DNA of 64,000 nucleotides from Gemmatimonas sp. (GTDB taxonomy: Bacteria > Gemmatimonadota > Gemmatimonadetes > Gemmatimonadales > Gemmatimonadaceae): positions 4,864,001-4,928,000 of the forward strand of contig OZ257156.1 in NCBI GenBank assembly GCA_965279375.1, given 5' to 3'. The notes under the pieces are model-generated. The model ran no database searches and was not told the origin of the DNA. It was given only the letters and a program-made list of their open reading frames with translations. This document shows, piece after piece, positions 2,998-36,652 of this stretch. Numbering within the stretch: position 1 is the first letter of the stretch; the number at the start of each line of letters is the position of its first letter. A program made the translations under genes and the position numbers.

Positions 2998-3735
2998 ATG
3001 CTCCCTGCCGCGGTCGATCGCCCCGCGATCATTCTGGACAACATCGCGCACCGATTTGGACGTCGGTGGGCCGTTCGCGGCGTGTCGGTGTCCGTGGCGC
3101 GCGGTGAGGTGCTGGCCATCATGGGGCACAACGGCAGCGGCAAGAGCACACTGCTGCGCGTGGCAGCGACCGCGATCCGCCCGACGCGCGGCGTCGGCTC
3201 GGTCAACGGCGTCGACCTCGTGAAGGATCCGCAGCGCGTGCGCGCGATGCTGGCGCTGCTCTCCACTGAGCCGGGCGTCTACGGCGACCTGACGGCGCTC
3301 GAGAATTTGCGATTCGCCGCCAAAATGCTCGGCGTGTCGGCCGACGGGCTGGCGCTGCAGCGTGCCCTCGATCGGGTGGGGCTTGGGCGCGAGGGGGACG
3401 AACGCGCCCGCAACATGTCGTCCGGCATGCAGCGCCGCCTGTCCATCGCACGGCTGCTGCTGCGTGAACCACAGGTCCTGCTGCTGGATGAGCCGTACAA
3501 CTCGCTCGATCCGGCCGGCGCCCATCTGGTCAACGAACTCATTCGCGAGACGCGCGACCGCGGCGGCAGCGTGCTGCTGGTCGCGCACGATCTGGGGCGG
3601 AGCGAGGGTTTGGCGCACCGCACCGTCGAGATGCGAGACGGGTTGCTGGAAGAGGAGCCGGATACTTCGGACGTCGTTCCGCTGGATACCAAGTCGGCGC
3701 GCGTCATGCGCGTGGAACGCGGAGGCAGCCGGTGA
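2998..3735 (+). CDS. ccmA: Heme ABC exporter ATP-binding protein
   Basis: Walker A GHNGSGKST, signature MSSGMQRR, LLLDEP. First gene of the ccm operon. Confidence 0.9.
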   Translation: MLPAAVDRPAIILDNIAHRFGRRWAVRGVSVSVARGEVLAIMGHNGSGKSTLLRVAATAIRPTRGVGSVNGVDLVKDPQRVRAMLALLSTEPGVYGDLTALENLRFAAKMLGVSADGLALQRALDRVGLGREGDERARNMSSGMQRRLSIARLLLREPQVLLLDEPYNSLDPAGAHLVNELIRETRDRGGSVLLVAHDLGRSEGLAHRTVEMRDGLLEEEPDTSDVVPLDTKSARVMRVERGGSR

Positions 3736-4442
3736 GTACCGACAGCGCAGCGCTGACGTCGCTGCAGGCCGATTGGGGTCGGGTCAAGGCGGTGGCGTGG
3801 AAGGACCTCACAGCAGAGCGGCGAACCAAGTCCAACTTCAACGCCGTCGTCGCGATGGCGGGGCTGATTCTCCTGTTCTTCGGCTTTGCCCTCGGTCCGG
3901 ACGCCGAAGGGCTCCGCAACGCAGCGGCCGGGGTGCTCTGGCTGACCATCCTCTTCAGCGGCGTGCTGGCGTTCAACCGTTCGTACCAGCTGGAGCTCGA
4001 GGCGGGCGCGCTGGAACAGCTGCTGATGTATCCCGGCGAGCGCTGGGCGATTTATCTGGGCAAGTTTCTGGCGAATCTCGCGTTCGTTTTTTTGGTCGAG
4101 GCGGTCACACTGCCGCTGACCGGGGTGCTGTATCATGTCGCCTTCCCGGAGCGATGGGCGACGGTGCTGCTGGTACTGTTCCTCGGCACCACGGGCTTCG
4201 TGTCGCTGGGAACGCTCTACGCGGCGATGGCCAGCCGCAGTCGGTCCCGAGAGGTATTGCTGCCGCTGCTGCTCTTTCCGATGCTCGTGCCGGTGCTGAT
4301 TGCAGCGAGCGGGGCGACGGCGTCGTTGTTGGTAGGCGATGTGATGGGTGACAGCCGGGCGTGGATCCGCCTGCTGGGCTCCTTCGATGTCATTTTTGTC
4401 GTAGCGTCCACCTGGGCGTTTCAATTCGTGATCGAGGGGTGA
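3732..4442 (+). CDS. ccmB: Heme exporter permease CcmB
   Basis: Multi-TM, E..GALEQL and LLPLLLFP motifs, 4-nt overlap with ccmA. Confidence 0.9.
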   Translation: MSTDSAALTSLQADWGRVKAVAWKDLTAERRTKSNFNAVVAMAGLILLFFGFALGPDAEGLRNAAAGVLWLTILFSGVLAFNRSYQLELEAGALEQLLMYPGERWAIYLGKFLANLAFVFLVEAVTLPLTGVLYHVAFPERWATVLLVLFLGTTGFVSLGTLYAAMASRSRSREVLLPLLLFPMLVPVLIAASGATASLLVGDVMGDSRAWIRLLGSFDVIFVVASTWAFQFVIEG

Positions 4443-4453
4443 GGAGATAATCC

Positions 4454-5209
4454 GTGGCTGAAAGCACGCTGAGAACCGCCGCGCCCAAAGCGCCGCCCAC
4501 CGCGCTGCCGATCGAGCTCGAGGCCATGCCGGGCTGGCTCACCGCGTTGACGTGGCTGACCCCTGTCGCCGTCGTCGCGGCCGAGGCTTGGTTCGTCTAC
4601 GCCTCCGCGCCGGATCGCGACATGGGGCATTTGCAGAAGATCATGTACGTGCACGTGCCGGCCGCGTGGAACGCCTTTCTGGCTTTCCTGCTCGTTTTCG
4701 TGCAGAGCGTGCGGTACTTGTGGACGCGCAACGAGCGCGCCGACCTGCTGGCTGCCGCGGGCGCCGAAGTCGGCGCGGTCCTGACCGGACTGACGCTGGC
4801 GCTCGGGTCGATCTGGGGGCGTCCTACCTGGGGCGTCTGGTGGACGTGGGATGCGCGCCTGACCTCCACGGCCGTGCTCTTTCTCGTCTACGTGGGCTAC
4901 CTGGCGCTGCGCGGCCTGACGGACGACCCGGAGCGTCGGGCGCGGTGGAGTGCCGCGGTTGGCATTCTGGGCGCGCTCAACGTGCCGATCGTGTACATGT
5001 CGGTGAAGTGGTGGCGCACACTGCACCAGATGCAGTCGGCTCCCAGCACCGTCGATCCCACGTACGCGTGGGGACTTCGTGCGAACTCAATTGCCTTCCT
5101 GCTCGTTTTGATTGTGTTCATCTCACATCGCTATCGTGGATTGGTGGCGGAGTACGTATTGGAACGTCGCGCCGATGAAGCGGCGCTGACACGGAGGGCT
5201 GGCGCATGA
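4454..5209 (+). CDS. ccmC: Heme exporter / heme delivery protein CcmC
   Basis: YVHVP, WWD motif WGRPTWGVWWTWDARLT, WWRTLH. Confidence 0.95.
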   Translation: MAESTLRTAAPKAPPTALPIELEAMPGWLTALTWLTPVAVVAAEAWFVYASAPDRDMGHLQKIMYVHVPAAWNAFLAFLLVFVQSVRYLWTRNERADLLAAAGAEVGAVLTGLTLALGSIWGRPTWGVWWTWDARLTSTAVLFLVYVGYLALRGLTDDPERRARWSAAVGILGALNVPIVYMSVKWWRTLHQMQSAPSTVDPTYAWGLRANSIAFLLVLIVFISHRYRGLVAEYVLERRADEAALTRRAGA

Positions 5210-5358
5210 ACGGCATGGTCATCGATTCCTGGCCGTACGTGATCGCGTCGTTCGTCCTCACGTGGGTAGTACTAGTGGGCTACAGCGTTCGTCTTTTTCG
5301 CATGATGCGCCGCAATGGCGCAGCGGCGACTTCCCCTGCTTCGGCAACACGCTCATGA
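5206..5358 (+). CDS. ccmD: CcmD-like small membrane protein (50 aa, below the ORF track cutoff)
   Basis: MNGMVIDSWPYVIASFVLTWVVLVGYSVRLFRMMRR. ATGA overlaps with both the ccmC stop and the ccmE start. One TM followed by a basic tail. Confidence 0.8.
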   Translation: MNGMVIDSWPYVIASFVLTWVVLVGYSVRLFRMMRRNGAAATSPASATRS

Positions 5359-5852
5359 CCAGCTCTCCCGCTCCCGATTCGGCGTCGCCCGTTTCCGCCG
5401 GCCCGCGCAACCCGTCGCGCAAGCCGATGGCCATCACGGCGCTCGTCCTCCTCGTCGGCGCTTTCGGCTACCTGATGTACGGCGGTGTCGAAGAGAATCT
5501 CGTGTACTTCCTGACCCCCAACGAACTGGTGGCCAAGGGCGAGAAGGCAGTGGATCGCCCGGTGCGACTCGGCGGACAGGTGGTGCCCGGCTCCGTGGTC
5601 TGGAACGCCGAAGCGCTCGACCTGCGCTTCCGCGTGACGGATGGCTCCAAGGAGGTGCTCGTGCACTCCTCCGGTGCGCCGCCACAGATGTTCCGCGCCG
5701 GCATCGGCGTCGTGGTGGAAGGCAAGTACGGCCGCAGCGGCGTCTTCGAGTCGCACAGCCTGATGGTCAAGCACTCGAACGAGTACCGCGCACCCAAGGC
5801 GGGTGAAGAAGGTCATCCGGCGCGCCTCGACAAGACGCTGATCCGGAGCTGA
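5355..5852 (+). CDS. ccmE: Heme chaperone CcmE
   Basis: N-terminal TM, VYFLTP, VRLGG, PPQMF, heme-binding HxxxY (KHSNEY). Confidence 0.93.
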   Translation: MTSSPAPDSASPVSAGPRNPSRKPMAITALVLLVGAFGYLMYGGVEENLVYFLTPNELVAKGEKAVDRPVRLGGQVVPGSVVWNAEALDLRFRVTDGSKEVLVHSSGAPPQMFRAGIGVVVEGKYGRSGVFESHSLMVKHSNEYRAPKAGEEGHPARLDKTLIRS

Positions 5853-5856
5853 TCAA

Positions 5857-7890
5857 GTGACACGCATTCTTGGCCTGGCGAGTGTCTGGATCGCGCTGGT
5901 AATGGCGGTTTACGGCATCGTCGCCGCGGTCATCGGACTCACCAAGCAGCGGCAGGCCTACGTCGCCAGCGCGATGCAGGCGGTGTACGTCAACTTCGCG
6001 CTGCTGACGCTGGCGACCGGCGCGATGATCTACGGCTTGGTCACGCACGACTTCAGCATCGGCTACGTCGCGCAGGTGGGCAGCCGTACCACGCCGCTCT
6101 TCTACACGATCATCTCGCTCTGGGGCGCACTCGAAGGCTCCATCCTCTTCTGGGGATGGGTGCTGACGATGTACAGCGCTGTCGTGGTGTACAGCAATCG
6201 CAAGCGCGAAGGCAATCTCGTGCCCTGGTCCGCGGTCGCGCTGATGACGATCTGCCTCTTCTTCTTCATCCTGCTCGTCGGTCCGGCCGACCCGTGGGGG
6301 CTCGTTTCGCCCACGCCGGCGGATGGCCCGGGTCCTAACCCGCTGCTGCAGAACCACATCCTGATGGCGGTGCATCCGCCGCTGCTGTATCTGGGCTACG
6401 TCGGGATGTCGGTGCCGTTTGCATTCGCCGTGGGCGCGCTGATGGCCGGCGAGATCCACTCCGCCGACTGGATCAAGCTGACGCGCCGCTGGACGTTGAG
6501 CGCATGGTCGCTCCTCTCGCTAGCGATCATCGCTGGCATGTGGTGGAGCTACGAAGTGCTTGGCTGGGGCGGCTACTGGGCGTGGGATCCTGTCGAGAAC
6601 GCGTCGTTCATGCCGTGGCTCACCGCCACCGCCTTCCTGCACTCGGTCATGGTGCAGGAGCGTCGCGGGATGCTCAAGCTGTGGAACGTGAACCTGATTG
6701 TCTCCACGTTCCTGCTCACCATCCTCGGCACCTTCCTCACGCGCTCCGGCATCATTTCGTCGGTGCACGCGTTCACGACGGGCACGATCGGCTACTACTT
6801 CCTCGCCTTCATCGCGCTCTGTCTCGTTGTCTCGCTCGTGCTGATCGGCGGCAACAGCGACAAGCTGCGCAGCGACGGCTACCTCGACTCGGCGGCCTCG
6901 CGTGAAACGATCTTCCTCTTCAACAACCTGTTTCTGACTGGCTTCACCTTCGTGGTGGTGCTGGGGACGCTCTTCCCGCTGGTCGCGGAAGCATTCAAGG
7001 GTGTGAAGGTCACGGTCGGCGCGCCGTTCTTCAACAAGATGACCATCCCGATCTGCGTCGCCCTGCTGTTCCTCATGGGCGTCGGGCCGGCGTTGCCGTG
7101 GAAGGCGGCGTCGCGTGCACAGCTGCGCACGATGTTCATCCTGCCGTCGGTGGTGGCGATCGCGATCATCGGCATCGCGCTCGCGATGGGCATGCGCGAC
7201 GCGTATGGCATGGCGGCGTTTGCGTTCGCCGGCTTCGCCCTGGTGTGCAACCTGCGCGAGTACTGGATCGGAGCGGCGGCGCGCATGCGCGCCCATGGTG
7301 AAGCGTTTCCCGTGGCACTCGCGCGTCTCATCGGCGCCAACCGTCGTCGCTACGGCGGGTTCATCGCGCACATCGGCATCATCACCGTCGCGGCGGCAGT
7401 CACCGCGTCGTCCAGCTTCCGCTTTGAACGCGACGCCACGCTCAAGCCGGGCGCCGTCATGCCGGTCAAGGGCGATCTGTCCGTGCGCTTCAAGTCGCTC
7501 TGGGAAAAGGATGAGCCGCAGCGTCAGGTGATCGGCGCCGATGTCGAAGTGCTCGACAAGGGCGAGATCATCGGCACGCTTGATCCGCGGATGAACTTCT
7601 ATCGCTCGCAGCAGCAGCCGGTGCCAACGCCGGCCGTGCGCAGCCGTCTCGTCGGTGACGTGTACATCAACCTGATGGCGTTCACGCCGGATGGTCAGTC
7701 GGCGACGCTCAAGGTGATCGTCGAGCCGTTCGTGCCGTGGATCTGGTTTGGTGGACTCATCGTCGCGTTTGGCGCCGTCGTGTCCGCGTGGCCCGTCTCC
7801 CGTCGGTCAGCGCGTGCGGTCGCCGCCGTAGTGCCGCCGATGTCGCGTCCGCAGGGGACGCCCGTCACCGCATCGAGCGTGGCGCAATGA
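5857..7890 (+). CDS. ccmF: Heme lyase CcmF
   Basis: WGALEGS, HPPLLYLGY, WGGYWAWDPVENAS, SVHAF. Confidence 0.97.
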   Translation: MTRILGLASVWIALVMAVYGIVAAVIGLTKQRQAYVASAMQAVYVNFALLTLATGAMIYGLVTHDFSIGYVAQVGSRTTPLFYTIISLWGALEGSILFWGWVLTMYSAVVVYSNRKREGNLVPWSAVALMTICLFFFILLVGPADPWGLVSPTPADGPGPNPLLQNHILMAVHPPLLYLGYVGMSVPFAFAVGALMAGEIHSADWIKLTRRWTLSAWSLLSLAIIAGMWWSYEVLGWGGYWAWDPVENASFMPWLTATAFLHSVMVQERRGMLKLWNVNLIVSTFLLTILGTFLTRSGIISSVHAFTTGTIGYYFLAFIALCLVVSLVLIGGNSDKLRSDGYLDSAASRETIFLFNNLFLTGFTFVVVLGTLFPLVAEAFKGVKVTVGAPFFNKMTIPICVALLFLMGVGPALPWKAASRAQLRTMFILPSVVAIAIIGIALAMGMRDAYGMAAFAFAGFALVCNLREYWIGAAARMRAHGEAFPVALARLIGANRRRYGGFIAHIGIITVAAAVTASSSFRFERDATLKPGAVMPVKGDLSVRFKSLWEKDEPQRQVIGADVEVLDKGEIIGTLDPRMNFYRSQQQPVPTPAVRSRLVGDVYINLMAFTPDGQSATLKVIVEPFVPWIWFGGLIVAFGAVVSAWPVSRRSARAVAAVVPPMSRPQGTPVTASSVAQ

Positions 7891-8507
7891 ACTGGAAGCG
7901 TGCGGCGCTGCTCACGGCGTTCGTTGGTGGTCCGATGATCGCGCTGCTGTCGTACGGCATGACGCGCGATCCGCGCAGCATTCCGTCGCCGTTGCCAGGG
8001 CGTCCGGCACCGGTATTCACACGCAGCGTCTTTGCACCGGGCAACGATCCGGTGCTGCGCCTCCCCGTTGGTGACTCGGTGCGGCTCGCCGACCACAAGG
8101 GGCAAGTCGTCGTCGTGAACTTCTGGGCCTCGTGGTGTCTGGCCTGTCGCGATGAACATGAGGCGCTGTCCAACGTCGCGCGGCGGTACGCTGGGCAGAA
8201 CGTGCGCTTCTACGGCCTGCTCTACAACGATCAGCCCAAGAACGGCATCGACTGGATCGAGATGATGGGTGGTCAGGCGTACCCGGCGCTCGAAGATCCG
8301 GGCGCTCGCGCGGCGATCGACTACGGCTTGTACGGCGTGCCGGAAACGTTCGTCGTCGACCAGCACGGCAGCGTGGCGCACAAGTATCTCGGACCGGTCA
8401 ATCCGGGTGAGTTAAGTGCGCTGATCGACTCCCTGCTGACCACCAACAAGACCTCCACCGACGCACCAGTGGTTCGTACGCTGCCATCGGCCGAGCCGAA
8501 GCAGTGA
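7887..8507 (+). CDS. ccmG: Thiol-disulfide oxidoreductase CcmG/TlpA
   Basis: NFWASWCLAC, YGVPETF, N-terminal anchor, ATGA overlap with ccmF. Confidence 0.9.
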   Translation: MNWKRAALLTAFVGGPMIALLSYGMTRDPRSIPSPLPGRPAPVFTRSVFAPGNDPVLRLPVGDSVRLADHKGQVVVVNFWASWCLACRDEHEALSNVARRYAGQNVRFYGLLYNDQPKNGIDWIEMMGGQAYPALEDPGARAAIDYGLYGVPETFVVDQHGSVAHKYLGPVNPGELSALIDSLLTTNKTSTDAPVVRTLPSAEPKQ

Positions 8508-8980
8508 CGCGGGGAATCGTCGGCACGCTGCGTGCCATCGTCGGGGCGTGCGCACTGAGCGCGATGATGGCGGTGCCACTGCACGCGCAGGGGCAGATGC
8601 AGCCTGCGGCGCCCAAGGCGGGCGTTCCGCTCGCGGGCGCCGACACCCTGCTCGATGCGCGCACCAAGAGCGTCGCCTCGCGCCTGCGTTGCCCGGTGTG
8701 CCAAGGAGAATCGATTCAGGACTCGCCGGCCGAACTCGCTGGCCAGATGAAAGACCTGGTGCGCGAGCAGCTCGCCAGTGGTCGCAGCGAGGCGCAGGTC
8801 TACGAGTACTTCACCGCGAAGTACGGCCAGTGGATTCTGCTCGAGCCCAAGGCGGAAGGCATCAACCTGCTCGTCTACGGACTCCCCATCGCGTTTCTCG
8901 TGCTCGGTGGCGCGGGACTGATGATGGCGGTCAAGAAGTGGACGCGACCGCCCGCAGATCCCATCACCACGTCGGAGTAG
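8504..8980 (+). CDS. ccmH: Cytochrome c biogenesis protein CcmH
   Basis: LRCPVCQ, YGQWILLEP, C-terminal TM. Confidence 0.92.
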   Translation: MTRGIVGTLRAIVGACALSAMMAVPLHAQGQMQPAAPKAGVPLAGADTLLDARTKSVASRLRCPVCQGESIQDSPAELAGQMKDLVREQLASGRSEAQVYEYFTAKYGQWILLEPKAEGINLLVYGLPIAFLVLGGAGLMMAVKKWTRPPADPITTSE

Positions 8981-9556: not shown

Positions 9557-10690
9557 ATGCGAAATCCCGCCCATCGCTCCGCATCACTCGCCGTAGCCAC
9601 GCACAACGGCGACGGCAGCTTCGTCACCGCGTCCGCCCGCACGGCGGGACTACTCGGCGCGCTTGCGCTCATGAGCAGCGCACTCGCGCCCGAGGCTCAG
9701 GCACAGTCGGAGCGGAGAACGCTCAGCGGCTCGTCCGTGGCGATCTACAATCTCGTCGGCAATGTGTCCGTCGAGTCCGGGCGCGGATCGGACGTGGTGG
9801 TGGAGGTTACGCGCCGCGGCGGCGATGCGCGGGAGCTGCGCATCGAGACCGGAGAGATTGGCGGCCGACAGACGCTCCGGGTGGTCTACCCCGACGACGA
9901 CATCATCTATCCAGGCCGTCGCGATTCCTGGGGAAGCACCGAGGTCCAAGTGAATGACGACGGCACGTGGGGCGGCAAGCGTTGGCGCGGCGGCCGTCGC
10001 GTCCGCATTCGCTCGCGAGGCCGCGGCACGGAAGCGTGGGCCGATGTACGTATTCTCGTGCCCACGGGCAAGAGCGTGGCTGCGCACGTCGCCGTGGGCG
10101 AGCTCAATGCGGACGGAGTGGATGGCAACATCGCGCTCGAGAGTGGATCAGGACGTACCACGGCATCGAATGTTCGCGGATCGCTGTCCGTGGATGTTGG
10201 CTCTGGCGGCGTGACGGTGCGCGATTCGGATCTGAGTGATCTCTCGATCGACACCGGTTCTGGTGGCGTATCGCTCTCCGGCGTGGTCGCGAATCACTGC
10301 GTCATCGACACCGGCTCCGGCGGAGTGCAGGGTGACAACGCCGCGTGCGATGCGCTGGATATCGACGTGGGCTCGGGCGGCGTGCGCTTTCTCGACTCGC
10401 GCTCCTCAGCGGTGCGCATCGATGCCGGCAGCGGGACCGTGTCGATGACGCTGCGCAACTCGCCGCGTTCGGTGAACATCGAGTCGGGCTCGGGCGGTGT
10501 CCTGCTTGGCGTGCCCGGTTCGTTGAGCGCGGATATCGATATCGAAACCGGCAGCGGCGGCATCGAGACCGACTTCATGCTCCGCACGAATCGCGTTGAA
10601 CGCAATCACGTGCGCGGCGTAATCGGCGACGGAGCGGGCCGCATTCGCATCGAGACCGGCTCCGGTTCGGTGAAGCTGCGTCGCAACTAA
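9557..10690 (+). CDS. DUF4097 / adhesin-like beta-strand repeat protein, exported
   Basis: Signal-like AQA-Q, many (D/E)TGSGGV repeats. Start approximate. Confidence 0.8.
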   Translation: MRNPAHRSASLAVATHNGDGSFVTASARTAGLLGALALMSSALAPEAQAQSERRTLSGSSVAIYNLVGNVSVESGRGSDVVVEVTRRGGDARELRIETGEIGGRQTLRVVYPDDDIIYPGRRDSWGSTEVQVNDDGTWGGKRWRGGRRVRIRSRGRGTEAWADVRILVPTGKSVAAHVAVGELNADGVDGNIALESGSGRTTASNVRGSLSVDVGSGGVTVRDSDLSDLSIDTGSGGVSLSGVVANHCVIDTGSGGVQGDNAACDALDIDVGSGGVRFLDSRSSAVRIDAGSGTVSMTLRNSPRSVNIESGSGGVLLGVPGSLSADIDIETGSGGIETDFMLRTNRVERNHVRGVIGDGAGRIRIETGSGSVKLRRN

Positions 10691-10701
10691 CGCAGCGCGC
10701 G

Positions 10702-12036
10702 CTACTTCTTCTTCACTGTTGGCAGCACCGTGAGCGCGAACGGATCTGCGTTCGGATCCTCGTGCCACTCGTACTCGAGACTTTTCGCCAGCAACCGCGC
10801 GCGATCCTTGCCGTAGAGCTTGGCCACCATGCCGAGCGCCATGTCGGTACCAGCGGACACACCGGACGACGTCAGCAGCTTGCCGTCGTCCACCCAACGC
10901 GCCTTGGGCATCCACTGCACCGATGGGTCCTGCTCCATCGCCAGTGCAAAGTAGGCCTTGTTTGATGTCGCCTTGTGCCCAGCGAGAATTCCCGCCTTCG
11001 CCAGCAACGCTGAACCCGTGCACACCGACGTCGTCAGCTCGGTGCGCGCGTGCTGCGTGCGGAGATAATCGAGGAACGCCGCGTTCTTGAGCTCCGTGAA
11101 CGTACCCACACCGCCGGGCACCATCATCACATCGAGCGGCGGCGCATTCGCAAACGAGTACTCGGCAATGGTAGAGACTCCCTGTGCCGATTTGACCGGC
11201 CCCGCCTTCTCGGCCACGAGCACCACCTTGAACTCCGTCACGTACGACCACATCTCGATCGGCCCAAAGACATCGAGGACCTCGAACCCTGGGTAGAGCA
11301 CGATCCCCACGGTCTTCTTGGTGGAGGCACCTGGCGGCGACACAGCCGGCGTTGCGGCGCTCGCCGAGGTAGCCACCGTCTTGATGGCTGGATCGAGGGC
11401 TGCCTTGAGATACGCGGCGCGCCCGCCCGAAATGCTGGCGAGATACTCGTCTCGATTGGAGACGCCATCGCCATCAGCATCGCCATCGTATGCGAGATAC
11501 TTGCTGAGCGCGACAGCAAGCGTGTAGTCGCTCTTGAGTGGTGCACCGAACGTGCCCGACATCTCGTTGTACGCGGCGAACGATCCTTTGCCGAGCATGG
11601 CGTATCCGGCGCTCACGTCGGCGGCCGTCGGGTAGCGGCTGGCCAGCGACTGCATGTCGGTCGTAGCGGAAGCCCGCGCTTGCAGAAACGCCGCCCGCAC
11701 GAGTGCATGCGTGACGCCTCGCGATGCGCTCCGATCGAACGTCGGATTGGCGAGAATCGCTGAGACCAGCGCCAACTCATCGGCGTCGAGCATGCCGTTT
11801 GGCTTGCTGGTGACATCAAGGTTGGCGTCGGTGGTGTTGGGTGCAAAGCCCAGCCCTTTCATCGCGGCGTCGAAGTCCACGACGAGCGGAAGCGGCGGAT
11901 TGGCGCGTGGCTGCGACTGTGCCTGTACTGTGTCCGTCGCGCCGAGCATGATGGTCGCAGTAGCGGCGGTCAGTCTGGCAACCTTTGACAGTGACCGACG
12001 TGAAGTCCGACGTCGCGGCGCACGCGCCGCGATCAT
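10702..12036 (-). CDS. Exported DJ-1/PfpI (isonitrile hydratase-like) protein with an N-terminal Ca-binding-motif domain
   Basis: Arg-rich signal ending VQA-Q, PNGMLDADE and DGDADGDGVSNRDE loops. C-terminal VGIVLYPGFEVLDVFGP...VPGG...SVCTGS...SSGVSAG. ATGA overlap with the copC stop. Confidence 0.85.
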   Translation of the reverse strand: MIAARAPRRRTSRRSLSKVARLTAATATIMLGATDTVQAQSQPRANPPLPLVVDFDAAMKGLGFAPNTTDANLDVTSKPNGMLDADELALVSAILANPTFDRSASRGVTHALVRAAFLQARASATTDMQSLASRYPTAADVSAGYAMLGKGSFAAYNEMSGTFGAPLKSDYTLAVALSKYLAYDGDADGDGVSNRDEYLASISGGRAAYLKAALDPAIKTVATSASAATPAVSPPGASTKKTVGIVLYPGFEVLDVFGPIEMWSYVTEFKVVLVAEKAGPVKSAQGVSTIAEYSFANAPPLDVMMVPGGVGTFTELKNAAFLDYLRTQHARTELTTSVCTGSALLAKAGILAGHKATSNKAYFALAMEQDPSVQWMPKARWVDDGKLLTSSGVSAGTDMALGMVAKLYGKDRARLLAKSLEYEWHEDPNADPFALTVLPTVKKK

Positions 12037-12439
12037 TTGCCTGTCACCTTGAAGTCGATCGTGCCGTTGACGACATGGCCGTCCTTGGACATTGCCTTCC
12101 ACGTCACCTTGTAGGCGCCCGCCGCGAGCGGCTTGCTGATCGCGGCAGACAGTGGAGCGTCCTTGGCTTCAGCACGCGTCACCGGCGCCGTTGCAATGGC
12201 AACGCCTGCATCCGTCGCCAATGCGATCTTGGTTGCCGGTACTTCCGCGGCTCGGAGAGCCAGAGCTGAATCGCTTCGGGCGACTTGGCGAGCGTGGTGT
12301 CTGCCGACGGGAAGGATTTGAGCAGCCGCAGATGACGCATCGCGGCACTCGGTGCTGCAACGGCCGCGAGGGCAGCAGCAACGGAAACGACAGCGACAGT
12401 ACGACGAGCAGTGACGTTAGCGAGGGGGCGAGCGATCAT
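12033..12439 (-). pseudogene. copC: Copper-binding protein CopC split by a 1-nt frameshift near 12247 (true lesion or sequencing error)
   Basis: The N-terminal frame gives signal + HLRLLKSFPSADTTL...IQLWLSEP. The other frame continues EVPATKIAL...LAAGAYKVTWKAMSKDGHVVNG. Adding one base restores a 135 aa CopC. Confidence 0.85.
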
Positions 12440-13593
12440 CGGGCACTCCAGGGGTTTGAATGTTGGGGATTCGTGAGAAACGAGCTGTCGGTGAGTGAGC
12501 GAAGAAACGCCAGCATGTCCTGCACTTCGCGCGGTGTGAGACCCATGCGCTTCATGAATTCGCTGCGGTACGGATTGGTCGCGCCAACGCCGGCGTGCGG
12601 CCCTGTCCGAATGGAGCGGCCACCCGCGTTGTAATGCGCGATCACCTGTTCGAGCGTCGCAATGCTGCCGTCGTGCATGTACGGCGCCGTCACGGCCACG
12701 TTGCGCAGCGACGGGGCCTTGAAGCGACCCATGTCCTCGTCGATGCCGGTGATCTCATGCACGCCGGTGTTGGGTGCCGGATACGCGCCGGTTCCACCGA
12801 TGTTGTAGAGTGCCGTATTGTGAAATTCGATTTCGGCGAAGCCTTTGCCTTCGTAGTCCGAGGTGCCAGTGAAGTTGAAGCCACCGTGACAGTGGAAGCA
12901 CTCGGTCTTCTCGGAGAAGAAGAGTTCCTCACCGCGTCGCGCCGACGCACTGATCGCGTGCAACTGGCCCGCCTTGTAGCGATCGTACGGCGAGTTCCCT
13001 GACAGCAGCGTGCGCTCGAATGACGCGATCGCCTTCACGATCTGGTCGAGCGTGACTCGCGCCGTATCGTCAGGAAAGGCCGCGGCGAACATCGCCTGAT
13101 ACTTGGGCACCGCCGCGAGGCGAGCGAGCAGCTGCTTCTCCTGTCCGCTCAGCCCCATCTCCACCGGCGATTCGCCGAACATCGGCACGATCGCCTGCTG
13201 CTCGAGCGAACGCATGCCGGGGTTGGCCCACGTGAGCGCCGGAGTGTACGCCACGTTCGCCAACGACATGCTGCTGCGCGGGTGCACCTGCCCCGTCGAG
13301 CCCAACGAACCCGCTCGACCATCCGTGAACGCGAGACGCTGGATGTGACAGCTGCCGCAGCTGAACGTGCCGTTCCCCGAGAGTCGCGTGTCGTAGAACA
13401 GATGTCGGCCAAGCGTGACCTTCTCCGTCGTCATCGGATTCGATGCGGGCACCTTGGGCACCGGGAAACCCTTCGGGAGATCCCACGACCATGCGCGGCG
13501 CGGCGTCCACGCCGTGAAGCCGGCCAGCGCGCACGCGGCAACGATCAGCGACGCAGCGCCAACGGTGCGCAACGAACTCTGACGAATAGTCAC
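12436..13593 (-). CDS. mbnH: MbnH-like di-heme cytochrome c peroxidase (MauG family)
   Basis: Two CxxCH motifs (CGSCH, CFHCH), FKAPSLRNVAVTAPYMHDGS, EMG, adjacent to an mbnP-like gene. Confidence 0.88.
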   Translation of the reverse strand: MTIRQSSLRTVGAASLIVAACALAGFTAWTPRRAWSWDLPKGFPVPKVPASNPMTTEKVTLGRHLFYDTRLSGNGTFSCGSCHIQRLAFTDGRAGSLGSTGQVHPRSSMSLANVAYTPALTWANPGMRSLEQQAIVPMFGESPVEMGLSGQEKQLLARLAAVPKYQAMFAAAFPDDTARVTLDQIVKAIASFERTLLSGNSPYDRYKAGQLHAISASARRGEELFFSEKTECFHCHGGFNFTGTSDYEGKGFAEIEFHNTALYNIGGTGAYPAPNTGVHEITGIDEDMGRFKAPSLRNVAVTAPYMHDGSIATLEQVIAHYNAGGRSIRTGPHAGVGATNPYRSEFMKRMGLTPREVQDMLAFLRSLTDSSFLTNPQHSNPWSAR

Positions 13594-13605
13594 GATCGAG
13601 TCTGG

Positions 13606-14565
13606 CTACTTGCCGGCAGTGCCAACGCGCATCGCATCGCCGCGCTGCGCGCGGAAGAAGCGCGGAGTGTCCGCGCCGGTCGATGACGGATGCGGCAGAC
13701 CGAGCGACGCAAAGAGTCCGCCGCAGTCGCTGTCCGACTCGGCCGACATGCACCCCGCCGCCGTCTTTGGCTGATTCTTGCGCACGTCGCTTCGAGCGAG
13801 CAGTGCGGCCAGATCGGCGACGACCACATCACGCTTCGGGTCGAAGCCCGGAAGCGCAATCGTCGCGCGGTTCGGATGACCGCAGCTCTTGGGAGTCTTT
13901 GCCGTGGAGTCGGCAGTGACGCATCCGGTGCTGCCCAGATGAATCACCCACGGCGTGGGCGCCGAGTCAGCGGCGGTCGCGCGCATGTCCACACGCAGGA
14001 ACTTGTGCCCCGACTGCCACGCCCAGAACAGCTGCGACAACGACAGTGGCGGCGGTGCCTTGGCGAGATCTTCGTGATTGCGGGAGAACGGAACGCCGAG
14101 CGCGAAGGAGACGCCGCGGTAGTCGCCAGCGGGTGCCATCACAACGACGTAGTCACGCGTTTCAGGCGTGCCGTTCGCGCACGATCCAGTCGCGTTCTCG
14201 AAGTCCACGAGTGCGACATCCGCGTCCTGCCACGGCGCTTCTGCGCGCAGCGCGGCGCGCACGGTGTCCCCGCGCGACGAGACGAGCTTGATGTCGCTCA
14301 CGTAGAAGCGGAAATCACTGGCGGTCACACTGGCGCGCGATGTACCGATGCCGTCGTATTTGGTGCCGCAACGAAAGGCCGCGGTGTCCACCACGCCGCG
14401 GAAGCGCACGGTCAGGGGAACGAGCGAGTCGCTCGCGGCCCGCGACGGCCGCGGGCGCTCGGCGGCGGCGGAGTCGGTAGCGACCGCGCCTAGCAGCGAG
14501 AGCGTGATCGCGCCGATGGCGCACAAACCGGCGGGAGCGATGAGGCGGGACAAGCGTTGGGACAT
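13606..14565 (-). CDS. mbnP: MbnP-family periplasmic copper-binding protein
   Basis: DFRFYVSD, LVDFENATGSC, LGVPFSRNH, WxW motif FWAWQSGHKF, IHLGSTGC, GCMS, signal peptide. Confidence 0.88.
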   Translation of the reverse strand: MSQRLSRLIAPAGLCAIGAITLSLLGAVATDSAAAERPRPSRAASDSLVPLTVRFRGVVDTAAFRCGTKYDGIGTSRASVTASDFRFYVSDIKLVSSRGDTVRAALRAEAPWQDADVALVDFENATGSCANGTPETRDYVVVMAPAGDYRGVSFALGVPFSRNHEDLAKAPPPLSLSQLFWAWQSGHKFLRVDMRATAADSAPTPWVIHLGSTGCVTADSTAKTPKSCGHPNRATIALPGFDPKRDVVVADLAALLARSDVRKNQPKTAAGCMSAESDSDCGGLFASLGLPHPSSTGADTPRFFRAQRGDAMRVGTAGK

Positions 14566-14837
14566 GAGAGCTCCGGAGAGAATCGGAGGCCCCTCCACCG
14601 CGTCAGGCCCGACGCGATGGAGGCACAACCGGCTGGAGGCCTGAAGGCACCGGTTGCGTGCTGCTCCGAGGACAAGAACTGGAGAAGTGGAGACCGCGCG
14701 CGACACGGAGCACGCACAACAGCGCGCAAACACGCGCGCCAACGCGTGCGTTCGTGAACGCAGATGCTCAGCGTCGGATAGACGCTGCGCTTACCGGTCT
14801 GTGATGTGAGGTGTGGCCGACCTTGCGGCCACCGACG

Positions 14838-15338
14838 TCAGGTGCGAACGCTGACGGGAGGCGCGATGGCGAACGGGAGGACGAAGTCCACCCAGCGCGT
14901 AACGAGTGCAGGATGCTCTTGCGGCAACGACACTTGGCCGACGCGTTCCACGACCCGCAACACCACCGCAGCAGGCTGCTGCGGCATGGCGACAATTGCG
15001 CAGCAGTGGCCGAGACAATCGCACGGATGTGGCGCCGGCGATCGCTCGCCTTGGCCATCACTCGTTGTGGCAGGCGCCGTGTGCGCCATGTGCGCGTGAG
15101 GCGCACTCTCCTCGTGCACGCTCGCAGCATGCGCAGCGGACGTAAGCGCGCTTCCGTTCACGTCGATCGGCGATTCGGCGGGAGCACTCATGCCCTGCAT
15201 CGCGCCGTGCGCCATGCCGTGTTCCGCACCGTGGCCGCCAGACGGGCACGACAAAACCGCCGGGCGGGCAGCGATGAAGCTGCACCACACCAACGCCATG
15301 ACGGCCTGCATCAGCCAGGATTTGCGCAACCGCGACAT
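14838..15338 (-). CDS. His/Met/Cys-rich exported leader protein, DUF2946/CruR-like architecture
   Basis: N-terminal hydrophobic segment, HGAEHGMAHGAMQGM, HAHMAH, CDCLGHCC, C-terminal LPFAIAPP. Upstream of mbnP on the same strand. Confidence 0.7.
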   Translation of the reverse strand: MSRLRKSWLMQAVMALVWCSFIAARPAVLSCPSGGHGAEHGMAHGAMQGMSAPAESPIDVNGSALTSAAHAASVHEESAPHAHMAHTAPATTSDGQGERSPAPHPCDCLGHCCAIVAMPQQPAAVVLRVVERVGQVSLPQEHPALVTRWVDFVLPFAIAPPVSVRT

Positions 15339-15370
15339 GCGAATAGCCTACGGCAGGTGGGCCGCGCATG

Positions 15371-17029
15371 TCAAGCCGAGCAGAATCCCCTCGCAACCAG
15401 CAGTGCGCGCACTGGCTCCGCCGCCATGCTCTCCGCTGACTCGTGCCACCGATTGAACGACTCGGCGCGCGTTGCGCCGGCGTCGAGCAGTGCGGCAGTG
15501 ATCGACACATAGTCGTCCACGCGCGGATTGTTCGCATTGGTGGAACCGTGGGCCGTCCACGCGATCGGTGAGCTGCCGTAGTTGCTGTCCCGCTGATTCA
15601 CTGGTGCGCCGGCGGCGATCAGCTGCGCCACCAGCGCTACGCGTCCGTGCCACGCGGCCCAATGCAGCGGCGTGCCGCCCCACTCGCCGTCCTGATCGAG
15701 CGGCCAACCCAGCGCGAGCATCAGGGCCACGCTCGCATCGCGTCGCTCGTCGATCGCTACGCCCAACGCCTGCCGATCTTCGGCAGTCAGTTCCGACAAG
15801 ACTCGCGGATGCGCCGTCAGCACGGCGCGCGCCGACGCTTCATCGGCCACGGCACAGGCACCGAGCAACAGATCGACGGGCGCGAGGTCATCGACAACCG
15901 CGCCGTGCTGCTGCAAGTACGCCGCAGCGGCCCTATTGCCCGCGCGTACCGCCAACGCGTACGGCGTTCGTCCATCGCGTCGGCGAACCGTGATGTTTGC
16001 ACCGTGTGCGACGAGCAACGCGACGACCGATGCGTCGTACCCGGACGCAACCACCCGATGCAGCGGCACCTCGCCGGCGTACGATTTACCTGCGTGCGAG
16101 TTACCCTCGTCGGTCGCACCGGCATTCTCTCCAGCAACGAAGCTCCGCACGTTCGGATCGGCACCATGCGCGAGCAGCCACTCCATGCCGCGGAGTACGG
16201 ACGCACTGATCGGATTGGACGCACGATGCGTGGCCAGAAAGTAGAGCGGCGTGTTGCCGGACGCGCCGTGCCGTCCGCTCAGCTCCGCACCGAACTCACG
16301 CAGCGCCTCCAGACATTCGCGGTGATCGTGCTGCGCGGCGTGATACACGCTTTCGCCGTCGGTCGGGTTGGCGCCACGCTCGAGTAGGAGCCGAGTGAGT
16401 GGCTCATCGTTGGCGACGCAGGCAAAGTAGAGAATGGGAATGCGTGCCGTAGCATCGCCCAGCGGCACGGAAGCGTTCGCGCTCGCCCCTGCGTCCAGCA
16501 GCAACCGTACGCTCTCCAACCGTGCGCGAGGCGACACGTCCAACTGCGCGTGCAGCGCACACTGCATCGCATACACGATCGGCTCGGTGCCATCGGGCTC
16601 GGTGGGTCGCATTGCCGAGGACGGATCCGACGCGATCCAGTCGGCGAGCGCGTCGACATTTGCCGTCGCGGCCGCCGTGTGCACGTTCACGCCAGAGATC
16701 GCGGGGTACGCGGTCAGCAGCTCATGCGCCCGCGCGAACTGCTCATCGCGCACGGCCTTGAGAAAGAGCGCGGCGTTCACCCGCAGCGGATCCGCCGCTT
16801 CGACCGTGCGCACCAGCTCCTCCCACGAGCGAAGCCCGGCCTGTGTGGCCAGCGCACGCTGCGCATCCGCGATGGTGAGCGCCTCGCGCATCACGTCGTC
16901 GCTGGCGGAGACAAACTCCGGAAGCAGCCCGCGCAGTCGCTTGAGCAACACGGCATCGCCCTGTTGCGCCGCGCGCAGCAACTGCATCGACTGCGTCTGC
17001 AGTGCGGCGATCGAGAATCCATCCGCCAT
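15371..17029 (-). CDS. Ankyrin repeat protein with a small N-terminal helical domain
   Basis: LLERGANP, GNTPLY, GRTPY, GGTPLHWAAWHG repeats. GGAGGA RBS before the ATG at 17029. Confidence 0.9.
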   Translation of the reverse strand: MADGFSIAALQTQSMQLLRAAQQGDAVLLKRLRGLLPEFVSASDDVMREALTIADAQRALATQAGLRSWEELVRTVEAADPLRVNAALFLKAVRDEQFARAHELLTAYPAISGVNVHTAAATANVDALADWIASDPSSAMRPTEPDGTEPIVYAMQCALHAQLDVSPRARLESVRLLLDAGASANASVPLGDATARIPILYFACVANDEPLTRLLLERGANPTDGESVYHAAQHDHRECLEALREFGAELSGRHGASGNTPLYFLATHRASNPISASVLRGMEWLLAHGADPNVRSFVAGENAGATDEGNSHAGKSYAGEVPLHRVVASGYDASVVALLVAHGANITVRRRDGRTPYALAVRAGNRAAAAYLQQHGAVVDDLAPVDLLLGACAVADEASARAVLTAHPRVLSELTAEDRQALGVAIDERRDASVALMLALGWPLDQDGEWGGTPLHWAAWHGRVALVAQLIAAGAPVNQRDSNYGSSPIAWTAHGSTNANNPRVDDYVSITAALLDAGATRAESFNRWHESAESMAAEPVRALLVARGFCSA

Positions 17030-17174
17030 ACCATCCTCCATGTGGCGACCCGCGCCGACTCGTCGAATCGGGCACGGCCGCATCCCGCGCAATCATGTAC
17101 ACGCTGTCGTCGAAGTGCCAATGTAACGATCGGGCAAAGAAGCCGGACTGTCACTGCTGCCGCTTTTTGTGGAC

Positions 17175-19002: not shown

Positions 19003-19413
19003 TCAGCGTCGCTTGCGCTGCCCCTCGGTGACCAGCTGCTGATAGAGCCGGCGACGCGCGCGCGCGGCAGTCTCCAGCGTGGCGCCGTCCTTGAGCGTCT
19101 TGGAGAGCGAGCGCTGCTTGTATGTCGCGCGCACCACCAGCCCGCCCTGCGGCGTATGGTAGACGCCCACAACGCCGCTTGGTGTGCGTGCCTTGGTCAC
19201 GATGGGCACGCCATCGATGTAGACCTGCTTGTGCTTCTGGTGCTGACGCAGCACCCAGGCCGCGCACTTTTCCTTGGCCTTCTTCTTCCCGCCGTGCAGG
19301 CGATCGGAGAAGAAACGAGAGGGCGGACGGGCACCGTCCACCTCGAAGTAAATGCGACCCTGCCACCCGAAGCTGTTCTTCTCGGGCTGTTCGATGCGAA
19401 TGACGCCTTTCAT
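19003..19413 (-). CDS. Small basic protein with AP2-like DNA-binding domain(s)
   Basis: GVIRI...GWQGRI...RFFSDRLHGGKKKAK and a second SGVVGVY...AARARR unit resemble bacterial AP2 domains. Confidence 0.6.
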   Translation of the reverse strand: MKGVIRIEQPEKNSFGWQGRIYFEVDGARPPSRFFSDRLHGGKKKAKEKCAAWVLRQHQKHKQVYIDGVPIVTKARTPSGVVGVYHTPQGGLVVRATYKQRSLSKTLKDGATLETAARARRRLYQQLVTEGQRKRR

Positions 19414-30231: not shown

Positions 30232-33200
30232 CTACCGCAACTCTCCGGCAAAGAACCGCAGCTGCATCGTCGCACTCAGCACCGTGTTGGAAATCCGTCG
30301 GTTGAGCGTGCGATCGAACGAGAGCACGTGGGATCCGGTCAGGCTGAACGTGACCAGCTCGGACACGTCGGTCGCCGCGTTGAGATTGAACGCCTGTCGC
30401 CCGTTGTTGGTCAGCACCGAGCTGATACCTGTGGAGGTGCCCGTCTCCGCGCCGCCCAGCGTGCTTGAGGCTATGGCTCCGATCACACCACCCACGACGG
30501 TCTTCGTTTCCTCGGACTGATACGACAGCTGCGTGCGCAGGTTGCTGCGTGTGTTCCAGCGCTTGGGCAGCTTGAAGCTGCGCGAGACATCGAAACTCAT
30601 CTGGCGAGTATCGAGGGCGGTCAGCGATCCCGGGCGCGAGTCCTCACGCTTGATGCGGTTGAACGAGCCGTTGGTGGTGACGCCACCGAAGAACGCCCAG
30701 CTCAACGTACCGGACAGCGGCCGACTCTTTGCCAGCGTTCGACTGCGATCGAAGAGCGCGCCGGTCTCGTTGGGGATACTGGTCTGCTGCTCCGTCACGA
30801 GGTAGCGGCCGTTGACCGACACCAGGTTGAGCACCTTCGCCAGCGACTTGGGTCGCCAGCTCCAACGCAGCGTGTAGTCTGGGTGCACGCGCTGCTCGCT
30901 AGTGATGAGTGCCTGGAATCCGTCGAGCGAACGACGCAGCCACGTTTCGGTGGTGCCGCGTTCAAAGCGCGAACCGAACGTGAGACCAAGCGGCAGGTTC
31001 ACGGAGCCGAGTGCGGTGAACTGCTTGACGCGTCCAGCGGCCGTCGCGAGTCGCGAATTCACGCCACGGAAATCCGTTACTCCGCCCAATCCGAACTGAT
31101 AGCCAACGCCCGGCATGAAGACGGTGTTGTCGTAGTTCGAATTGAGACTTTGCGACCAACGCAATTCGATCGGCGCGAAGAAGCGGCCCAACCAGCGCGT
31201 CCGCGACTTCTCGGTCGTGCGATCGAGCACGAATCGGCCAAGATCCACCGTCGTGCCGGCGCGCCAAGTCTGTGCCGCACCAAGTCGCTTGGGCAAGCGG
31301 AAGGCGCTCGTCGAGTCGCCTTCGCGCAACAGCGCGCGCGCGTTGGGATCCTTGTTCAAGTCAAAGCGCGACGTGAAGTCGAGTACGGGTCGCAGCCAGG
31401 GCGCCACGTTGGGTGCGAAGCCAACAGCCGACGTCAGCGAGCGCTCGCGCTCCAGTCCAAAGTTCGCTCCGACAAAGCGAATGCGCTCTGCTTCCGCGGC
31501 CTCGCGCCGAGCAATGCTGTCCGGCAACGTCGTCGCATCGCGATAGTCGCGCAGATCGAGGAGCTGGCGCGCGTCCAAGCTCGCGGTGAGCGACGGCACG
31601 GGCTGGAACTCCATGCGTGCACTGTTCTGCCAGTAGTGCGTCAGGCCGTACACCACCCGTCCTGTATCTGTCACCGAGGCCGCTGCCTTGGTGAACGACG
31701 TGAACGAGTTGGTGTTGCGCGCCAGCGAACTGGTGAGCCTGAACTGCGTGGGCGACCAGCGATACTTCTGCGTGAGCAGACCACGCACGACCCCGCTCTG
31801 CTGCCATGATTGCGGCAGCGCGCCCAGCATCCGGCCAAGGAAAGACGGTAGCGCCCCTTCTCGCTGGTCGTTGGCGAGGTTGAGCGTCGCGCCAAACACG
31901 TAGTTGCTGCTCTTGGCCGACTGAAACGCACTTTGCGACGTGCCGTTGGACCACGAGCCGTTGAGCGCGAGTCCGTTGACCACGGGCGCGTACCACCCGT
32001 TGGTAAGCGGCGTGGCTCTTCGCAGCGCCATCGCATAGTTCACACGCCGATCGCTCGGATTACGGATACCGTTTAAACCGCTGGCCCGCACGTCCGACTG
32101 ATTGATGAACAGCTGATCGACGCCGGAGCCCGCGTAGTCCATCGAGAACGGCAACACGATGCCCAGCTTGGCCGGCAGCATCCGCTCGAGATGCACGGTG
32201 CTGCCCACGCTCACACCGCTCGACGTCAGGAACGTTGGCGTCTCGCCGAGCTGTCGGAAGTTGGGATCACGACGACTGAGGTTCAGGCGGAAATCCGCGA
32301 GGTCGCCCGCGTTGGCCGACAAGCCGATTTCTCCGGCAAAACCGATGTCGTCCACCACGTCGGTCAGGCGAATGTCGTTGACCCAGAGCTCCAGCGTGTC
32401 ATTGGGGAGCAGCGCAGTGCCACCACGCGGCACGCTGTCCACGCGAATGATGCCCACCGCCATTTCCTGCACACCGGCGAGGTTGGGCGGCGTCACGCTG
32501 GGGTCCGCGCTGTAGACGATGTAGCCATCCTGACAGACGGCGTATCGACGCACAGTCACGCCGCGCGGCAATCCGGAGCGACGCAGCATCTCGAGATCGG
32601 CGCCGGTACACGCGAGCGAATCCTTGGACGCCGTGAGGAAATTGTTCTCCAGCTGCGCGCGCAAGAACTGGAACTTGGTCAGATCCACCCGCACTTCGGG
32701 ATTCCACGCCGACTGCGTCGGACCTGCATCTACCGCGGTGCGATACATGTAGAAGTTGTTCTCGTCACGCCCAAGCTTCACGAAACCATTCAGCTCCCCG
32801 GCCTGCCCCCACCCGTTCCCTCGGCCACGCATCCACAACCGCAGCGTCTTGTAGCCCATGAACGTCTTGGTGCCCTCGGCGAAGCGGAAGAACGCCTCCG
32901 CTCGATCGAACGGCCGCAGCGTCTGCCCCACCACACCGGTCTGCAGGCGCAACGCATGCTCATTCACCTGCTGCGTCACGTTGGAGTAGCCGGACTGTTT
33001 GTTCTCCGGCGCCTCGATCACGCCGGGCGGAGCGGTATACGGCAAGACTCCCGTGGAATCGAGCGTCCCGATCACCGACGCAATCACATAGCCAGCGGAC
33101 AAACCCAGCGAATCGCCCGCCGCACCAGAGATCGGACGATCGGCGCGCTTGAGCCACGGCGCACCAATGAGGCGCAGACGAGCGAGAGCGATGCGCGTGA

Positions 33201-36513: not shown

Positions 36514-36652
36514 CGAACTCCGGTAGTGGGGTACGAGCGGCGCGTTCAGCCGCGTCGTCACAGTGGCGGTCAGGGGGCGCAAACTGGCAACAACAGCGGA
36601 CTTATGTCGCTGCGCCCTTGATAATGCAGGTAGTCACAGGGGAATTTACGTC

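Follow-up and report, generated by a model that had tools for sequence, protein, structure and literature searches.

The di-heme enzyme MbnH oxidises a Trp of the WxW motif of its partner MbnP to kynurenine, creating a copper site, and reacts with hydrogen peroxide (PMC11951088), and the pair is conserved far outside the methanobactin producers (Kenney and Rosenzweig, PMC3621798). MbnPH-like genes and CopC have been named among the genes downstream of cruR homologues, and in the CruR peptide the spacing between the Cys motif and the arrest motif is 45, kept within one or two (PMC9426467). The Arg of its RAPP motif is essential for arrest in an E. coli system (PMC12992588; PMC10951233), and the stalling site of the CutF peptide is a proline run (10.1101/2025.02.05.636593; PMC9973294). 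Here we describe an operon in a stretch of 64,000 nucleotides from Gemmatimonas sp. (the window, C1:4864001-4928000 of a genome that forms a single contig, C1, of 5.31 Mb) in which a leader of this kind, mbnP, mbnH and copC are followed by a gene for an exported DJ-1/PfpI protein. This protein, which carries an unnamed domain X ahead of its DJ-1 domain (X-DJ-1, or the fusion), very probably belongs to the copper module. The operon comprises the following features:

15345..15374, minus strand, sigma-70-type promoter (TTGACA, 18 nt, TAGGCT), from the sequence and a comparison across leaders
14838..15338, minus strand, leader open reading frame (ORF), 166 aa, CruR/CutF-like by sequence features, no Pfam match
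14566..14837, minus strand, intergenic region, 272 nt, two hairpins, from a comparison of five close relatives
13606..14565, minus strand, mbnP, 319 aa, predicted exported copper-binding protein (TIGR04052, PF20243, PDB 7L6G)
12436..13593, minus strand, mbnH, 385 aa, predicted di-heme enzyme (TIGR04039, PDB 6E1C)
12033..12439, minus strand, copC, predicted periplasmic copper-binding protein, 135 aa once intact (two halves matching PF04234)
11377..12036, minus strand, N-terminal part of the fusion gene, signal-peptide-like stretch and helical domain X
10702..11376, minus strand, C-terminal part of the fusion gene, linker and DJ-1/PfpI domain of a 3MGK-like subfamily (PF01965, PDB matches)

The leader, mbnP, mbnH, copC and the fusion gene are five ORFs on the minus strand that together span 15338-10702. 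A preliminary description of this DNA had listed five co-directional genes, with mbnP (14565-13606) and mbnH (13593-12436) 12 nt apart and ATGA overlaps between mbnH and copC (12439-12436) and between copC and the fusion (12036-12033), all of which are present in the sequence. Its gene identities were borne out by hidden Markov models: MbnP matches TIGR04052 with 264.9 bits (cut-off 140) and PF20243 with 143.6 (cut-off 27), MbnH matches TIGR04039 with 505.2 bits (cut-off 362.85), the DJ-1 domain matches PF01965, and the CopC model is matched by two halves. In MbnP the WxW motif is W181-A-W183, and His209 and Met273 are conserved relative to PDB 7L6G. MbnH has CxxCH motifs at 79 and 232 and PYMH at 304, its best PDB match is 6E1C (405 bits), and it stays below the cut-off of the MauG model (181.9 vs 443.85).

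In the assembly copC is 407 nt long and falls into two halves in two frames, which match positions 1-29 and 48-92 of the PF04234 model. Contigs from all four short-read sequencing runs, which come from one sample and are possibly the source of the assembly itself, contain at full depth one additional C behind 12247, the only difference from the assembly over 10600-15500, and the same base is present in copC of the relatives (the intact orthologue in genome G339 scores 75.4 on PF04234 against a cut-off of 23.3). The copC gene is therefore intact and its frame break is an assembly error; a true pseudogene was considered and is ruled out by the base found in the contigs of 4/4 runs.

The preliminary description had proposed a neighbourhood survey for recurrence of the five-gene order, and the order does recur. 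X-DJ-1 was found in 5 of 87 genomes of the genus, in 5/5 behind copC, and in 3 of 401 genomes of the phylum. The full order occurs in three genomes (that of the window, G026 and G824, the last being locus L026), and in G817 an mbnH-copC-X run is cut on both sides by contig ends. G339 has the order leader, copC, X-DJ-1, cytochrome c, PCuAC and SCO1 and has lost mbnPH; a 5' remnant of mbnP (residues 45-92, 75%) is joined out of frame to copC. G339 was considered as an independent case and rejected, the remnant showing that its locus derives from the same operon. In G240, which belongs to another family, X-DJ-1 ends a run of mbnP-mbnH, an Asp/Asn hydroxylase gene and a BNR gene. In all six Gemmatimonadota genomes found with X-DJ-1 the gene lies in a copper operon. 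The periplasmic copper role of the module that had been proposed is supported. The coupling of the DJ-1 fusion to this module is likewise upheld, by synteny in relatives and by protein fusions with CopC and MbnH.

Those fusions came to light through domain X, a helical domain at residues ~50-220 of the fusion with loops of the DxDxDG type and without a Pfam or NCBIfam match. Its model (pLDDT 94.4, pTM 0.91) has a best match in the PDB with Z 4.0, rmsd 4.3 and 109 aligned residues, and no Foldseek match at E <= 0.001; the missing PDB match does not prove that the modelled fold is new. Matches in the Atlas were all <0.9, with a TSP3-like one serving only as a lead. Domain X was absent from the plasmids, the 351 genomes of a gammaproteobacterial order and the 5 named-locus genomes that were searched. 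The family of the fusion counts 137 members at E <= 0.001, the named ones from Vicinamibacterales, Caulobacter, Phenylobacterium and Gemmatimonadota, and 104 of the 106 members that could be scored have a hydrophobic stretch at the N-terminus, which is a rough indicator of export. Among 34 X-domain proteins that were scanned (31 from the 150 X-domain matches listed and 3 from the 120 fusion homologues listed) four are X-DJ-1-CopC, two MbnH-X and one X-HMBD-DJ-1. The fused CopC domains (P0137, P0143, P0145 and P0160) share H-x-M-x-x-x-D-L-M, which is a possible alternative copper site.

The DJ-1 domain itself (PF01965 at residues 242-404 of the fusion, 81.2 vs cut-off 26.6) has a nucleophile-elbow Cys in VCTG at 338-341. 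Among its PDB matches 3MGK ranks first (157 bits), followed by isocyanide hydratase (113) and human DJ-1 (<=39), and a fold search gave the same order; among characterised proteins, isocyanide hydratase is the closest by both criteria. In the alignment with this hydratase the positions of its general acid/base Asp17, its nucleophile Cys101 (PMC10462001) and Thr102 are taken by Asp255, Cys339 and Thr340. Across 120 homologues the motif with the Asp17 equivalent (LDxxGP) is kept in 116 and that with the Cys101 equivalent (VCTG) in 113; the domain has one conserved Cys and no conserved His. The NCBIfam cut-offs for glyoxalase III (67.5 of 131.25), PfpI (29.8 of 139.05) and YajL (28.7 of 252) were not reached.

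A second DJ-1 clade, with twin-Arg (Tat) signals and close to isocyanide hydratase (178-180 bits), was found in 6 of 41 mbnP loci and forms its own branch in the tree, separate from the X clade. In 401 genomes it gave nine matches, five of them strong, of which four lie in mbnP loci and one beside copC; the four weaker matches have no signal and no recognised copper gene within 17 kb, two of them having a distant di-heme gene. With the query left out, three of four strong matches fall among the 25 mbnP genomes of 400 (P ~8e-4, a value inflated by kinship). These distributions suggest that DJ-1 proteins may have been recruited to mbnP operons in parallel from two clades. In L089:8281-10233 and L093:9088-11040 single 650-aa ORFs match both MbnP and MbnH, apparent fusions; in each locus a gene for a Tat-exported hydratase-like protein lies two genes further downstream.

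Isocyanides chelate copper and their hydratases are thought to be defensive (PMC10462001), and hydration of diisonitriles has been proposed as a step of metal release, the formamides formed not binding copper (PMC13674278; PMC8872721). Since two DJ-1 clades arrived in one operon type, stripping of isocyanides is our best guess for the role of the fusion, and we give the whole chain, a periplasmic module for copper starvation by which isocyanide ligands are stripped of their copper, a probability of roughly 0.45, the isocyanide step included. A constitutive promoter would yield a leaderless mRNA, on which the ribosome, when copper is scarce, would stall at the proline-rich end of the leader, allowing the downstream genes to be expressed; copper bound to the Cys cluster 44 residues upstream would release the stall and shut the operon. 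MbnH would convert a Trp of the MbnP WxW to kynurenine to form a copper site and CopC would hold periplasmic copper, both on family-level knowledge. The Cys339/Asp255 site would hydrate isocyanide groups to formamides, which cannot bind copper, freeing the metal from imported or ambient isocyanide chelators of other microbes and detoxifying these chelators, and the released copper would pass to CopC and MbnP. Uptake and further transport would be provided in trans, by a TonB receptor behind a second leader and by a locus with copCD, SCO1 and PCuAC. The kinship with isocyanide hydratases and the fusions to copper proteins in other bacteria suggest an enzyme that may free copper from isocyanide carriers of other microbes or detoxify them. 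A search of the genome for the isocyanide synthase PF05141 had no match, its positive control being equally silent.

Several observations weigh against this reading, or against the tie to copper on which it builds. The nearest relative of the DJ-1 domain is the uncharacterised 3MGK, ahead of isocyanide hydratase; ATxN[KR] is found in 114 of the 120 homologues and ATTHW in none, the window having ATSNK in the place of the hydratase's ATTHW, and for this reason the domain was not filed as an isocyanide hydratase. In a tree built without PDB sequences it forms a separate long branch apart from the ICH-like rows. The Asp/Cys pair is not diagnostic of a hydratase because regulator-type models (FtrA, GbdR) also show it, and deletion of the fungal hydratase homologue xanA left isocyanide conversion unchanged (10.1101/2020.07.23.217810). 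The exported DJ-1 is missing in 32 of the 41 mbnP loci, and the related genomes are kin, so that counts among them are not independent. In the metagenome, four close loci of nine returned have no mbnP, mbnH or copC in the available DNA; two stand behind a TonB receptor, one behind a PvdQ-like acylase, and one is uninformative. The four X-DJ-1-CopC fusions form one clade in the tree and probably arose once, and their CopC parts are without the C-terminal DGH motif. Domain X is also found in large surface proteins without a copper domain (P0134, P0147, P0150, P0121 and P0136), in which it is repeated up to 11 times or paired with other domains (Ig-like, CHRD, P-domain or GDSL) together with a C-terminal hydrophobic tail.

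In human DJ-1 the catalytic Cys is a binding site for copper, and Glu18 stands where the fusion has Asp. The second point bears on an unlikely alternative, in which the domain would be a protective enzyme (a glyoxalase, or a scavenger of electrophiles or oxidants through Cys339) that counters damage by periplasmic copper or by the peroxide chemistry of MbnH and has no action on isocyanides. Membership of the DJ-1 superfamily, a subfamily distinct from isocyanide hydratase and the occurrence of MbnH-X fusions are in line with this, as is the reaction of MbnH with hydrogen peroxide (PMC11951088); the scores far under the glyoxalase III and PfpI cut-offs, the Asp in place of Glu18, the retention of the fusion in G339 despite the loss of mbnPH and the true hydratase clade that occupies the same genomic slot argue the other way. 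The copper bound by human DJ-1 would instead suit a non-catalytic carrier in which Cys339 holds Cu(I) and which passes the metal among MbnP, CopC and SCO1/PCuAC. Fusions to CopC, the HMBD insert and the SCO1 and PCuAC genes adjoining the fusion in G339 point in that direction, but a single conserved Cys, the lack of a conserved His and the full hydratase-type catalytic set that is kept make a pure carrier distinctly improbable.

The metagenome loci could also be read as hydrolysis, by amide or ester chemistry, of some other metallophore or ligand delivered by TonB receptors, in an enzyme that is not copper-specific and was secondarily recruited here: two of them lie directly behind such a receptor, one of which exceeds the siderophore-receptor cut-off (TIGR01783, 297 vs 223.5), and another follows the PvdQ-like acylase. 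Against the 6/6 Gemmatimonadota genomes with the fusion in copper operons, the CopC fusions and the HMBD insert elsewhere, we consider this improbable. That the fusion is a passenger, caught as the last gene of an otherwise ordinary leader-mbnP-mbnH-copC operon, would agree with its rarity in genus and phylum (5/87 and 3/401), with the relatedness of the genus cases and with the majority of mbnP loci that are without it. The ATGA coupling, the second family in which the fusion closes an mbnPH run, the protein fusions with CopC and MbnH and the parallel recruitment of a second DJ-1 clade make a mere passenger very unlikely.

In the reading of the operon as an isocyanide-stripping module under copper starvation, the leader is the sensor. 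It has a hydrophobic N-terminus, a His-rich linker, a Cys cluster and, 44 residues further, I-A-P-P five residues ahead of the stop. Its protein has no Pfam match and stays below the cut-off of PF11162 (DUF2946); sub-threshold DUF2946 matches occur in 5 of 27 members of the leader family (11-17.7 vs cut-off 23.7). The distance from the last Cys to x-[AG]-P-P, 44 in the window, is 43-47 in 36/36 leader rows, one of them a duplicate, under a search pattern that permitted a far wider range between Cys and APP. Like CruR, the leader combines this Cys motif spacing with the position of first gene and a 272-nt spacer; it also has the PP in the last 15 residues and the Cys motif of the CutF-like rule (PMC9973294), whose length limit is <150 aa; with 166 aa it exceeds this limit, under which many of its relatives (115-149 aa) stay. 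A leader profile, partly circular as it was trained on many of the same loci, matches in 37 of the 41 mbnP loci and finds exactly two strong copies in the genome of the window.

What speaks against a CruR-type leader is the lack of Arg before [AG]PP in all of 44 distinct sequences (0/44; consensus P-F/P-A-x-A-P-P), found with a training pattern that left out Arg; an unrestricted scan found RAPP only in a Lautropia locus. Since CutF stalls at a proline run, we regard the Arg-free leader as a variant and not as a new class. The Lautropia locus (L033:5384-7193), with a canonical RAPP leader ahead of PCuAC-mbnP-mbnH, is a direct proteobacterial counterpart of the window operon. The leader probably acts as the copper-sensing switch of the operon. 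The direction in which copper shuts the operon, as with CruR, appears likely, given the long spacer of the CruR type and the acquisition genes downstream, and the opposite, CutF-like direction appears rather doubtful. In the supplements of three papers, that of PMC9973294 in part, there are no entries for Gemmatimonadota or PfpI, and our literature search found no paper joining RAPP arrest peptides with a Gemmatimonad.

The promoter (TTGACA-N18-TAGGCT) ends 6 nt ahead of the leader ATG, within the final codons of an ankyrin-repeat gene and the gap behind it, which supports the start codon of the leader and implies, from its position, that the mRNA may be leaderless. A generic promoter scan missed it because its -10 box matches 3/6. 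A promoter of this layout stands ahead of 19 of 38 leaders (TTGACA exact in 10), compared with 10 of 1153 called genes of the genome, the leaders being scored at 2-14 candidate starts each and the background genes at one. The intergenic region of 272 nt has one hairpin directly behind the leader stop and a conserved one (14592-14623) before the mbnP start, in which three pairs change on both sides among the five close relatives; no riboswitch match to Rfam was found in it at E <= 1. A Rho site was considered and is not counted: over their last 50 nt 30/30 leaders have more C than G, largely through Pro codons, and the bias is weak past the leader stop (20/30 and 22/30).

The gene content around mbnP was surveyed in 41 Gemmatimonadota loci including that of the window (~38 genomes, with two duplicate loci set aside), which measure 3.9-19 kb and in some cases stop at contig ends; MbnP is present in 26 of 401 genomes of the phylum. 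In these loci copC occurs in 27, copD in 15, a TonB receptor in 11, and either copD or the receptor in 22. The preliminary description had noted the lack of a transporter, copD and methanobactin genes at the locus, and in agreement with this we found no copD or TonB receptor in the window between 4000 and 22000 and no MbnB (PF05114) in the genome, the positive control in Caulobacter being detected. The absence of mbnABC is not unusual for MbnP/MbnH pairs (PMC3621798). The module had also been called self-contained, which does not hold. The genome has copC-copD with genes for cytochrome c, SCO1 and PCuAC at C1:16.3-20.1 kb, and the second leader, a paralogue of the first (C1:747419-752649; L001:4419-9650), heads genes for a TonB receptor, a thioredoxin-like protein (AhpC/TSA) and a BNR-repeat protein, probably the route by which this bacterium takes in copper. 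With these genes elsewhere, and with copD or a TonB receptor in 22/41 loci, the operon is not self-contained and belongs to a copper system scattered across the genome.

In this copC-copD locus (C1:16086-20079, L135) the pair converges on an L31 gene, and in several relatives (L019-L022, L085, L087, L095) leader-mbnP-mbnH-copC-copD occupies that L31 slot, so that the window operon and the copC-copD pair may derive from a single ancestral locus. In L020, L022, L087 and L095/L121 mbnPH-copCD lies among genes for L31, L33, a CobW-family GTPase, a Fur-family protein and a DUF3526 ABC protein, a set usually tied to zinc limitation, and the metal specificity of some leaders may differ. The genome further has a second mbnH above the TIGR04039 cut-off (L002:8101-9675, C1:488-490 kb), without mbnP and behind a small molybdopterin-oxidoreductase-like gene, and two other CCP_MauG genes (L003:5600-7339, an Ig-domain fusion, and L004:6023-7852).

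Beside the operon lie ccm genes (2998-8980, opposite strand, two genes distant), which had been noted as the operon that would mature MbnH. The adjacency is real in the window but not conserved, ccmF being found in one of the 41 loci, that of the window itself, and a functional tie beyond general heme attachment was considered and is unsupported. The ankyrin-repeat gene (15371-17092, minus strand), which stops 32 nt upstream of the leader, and a DUF4097 neighbour were rejected as parts of the operon, each occurring in 1/41 loci. Elsewhere in the window a small gene of a lower G+C style (19003-19413, minus strand) encodes a product that presumably resembles an AP2-type DNA-binding protein, and a 2116-aa ORF (30232-36582, minus strand) lies between genes that by eye are pilus-like and LptF/G-like.

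This locus bears on the role of MbnP and MbnH outside methanobactin producers and on how Gram-negative cells free copper from strong chelators in the periplasm. It offers a cheap and specific test through a single exported enzyme that protein fusions link to both CopC and MbnH, for which a substrate class is predicted and whose catalytic Cys can be mutated. Such a test would also give an uncharacterised DJ-1 subfamily its function and the unnamed domain its structure; domain X merits a family model of its own. The leader offers a separate test, of whether stalling can proceed without the Arg that RAPP peptides need. A wider scenario, which we think rather unlikely in its entirety, would be periplasmic copper piracy by Gram-negatives that make no isocyanides: exported Cys hydratases recruited at least twice, from separate DJ-1 clades, would strip the isocyanide chalkophores of streptomycetes or fungi, copper would go to CopC and to kynurenine-bearing MbnP, the helical domain would dock the enzyme to MbnH or CopC, and the leaderless, Arg-free stalling peptide would gate the whole and be specific to Gemmatimonadota. 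If true, orphan MbnPH pairs and the 3MGK subfamily would both acquire a function. A search of the non-subscription literature yielded no report of an exported DJ-1/PfpI protein associated with CopC or MbnPH and, among the papers listed, none of an exported isocyanide hydratase; PMC13500777 gave no passage on a hydratase. The mbnP-mbnH-copC core without methanobactin genes behind leaders of the CruR/CutF type is a known arrangement and the remainder of the operon is ordinary; new here are a second DJ-1 subfamily that is found fused to CopC and MbnH, the unnamed domain X and an apparently leaderless, Arg-free leader.

Among described systems, the closest solved relative of the DJ-1 domain is 3MGK of Clostridium acetobutylicum (ThiJ family, entered in the PDB as a probable protease/amidase; 41% identical in the fold search), which has the ATxNK and W-x-x-D-x-x-x-D-P-F motifs in common with the fusion but is a single-domain protein whose aligned chain shows neither a signal peptide nor domain X; to our knowledge it has no copper link. 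Isocyanide hydratase of Pseudomonas (ICH/InhA, PDB 3NON) shares the DJ-1 fold and the Asp17, Cys101 and Thr102 equivalents at ~35% identity and has a different C-terminus, whereas the fusion is exported and joined to domain X; SfaF and Rv0052 are said to have been proposed as metal-release enzymes. As in the periplasmic CopC/CopD copper uptake pair, CopC of the operon carries a DGH motif at its C-terminus and a His at its N-terminus, while copD is missing here and present in 15/41 related loci and elsewhere in the genome; in classical CopC the His comes first, whereas in the window and its relatives the conserved His appears to lie two residues past the predicted cleavage site (x-x-His; site placed by eye). 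As in CruR of Bordetella pertussis and CutF of Rhodobacter capsulatus, the leader is the first gene of a copper operon, with an N-terminus like an export signal, a Cys cluster ~45 residues before a C-terminal A-P-P and a long intergenic region behind it, but it has no Arg before APP, a cluster of the CxCxxxCC type instead of CxxC and an apparently leaderless mRNA. The MbnP/MbnH pair (TIGR04052/TIGR04039, GenProp0940) is alike in its adjacent genes, its WxW and two CxxCH motifs and in needing no methanobactin genes (PMC3621798); PDB 7L6G has a Met two residues ahead of WxW where MbnP of the window has Leu, and the pair is followed here by copC and an exported DJ-1 fusion instead of a TonB receptor and preceded by a leader ORF.

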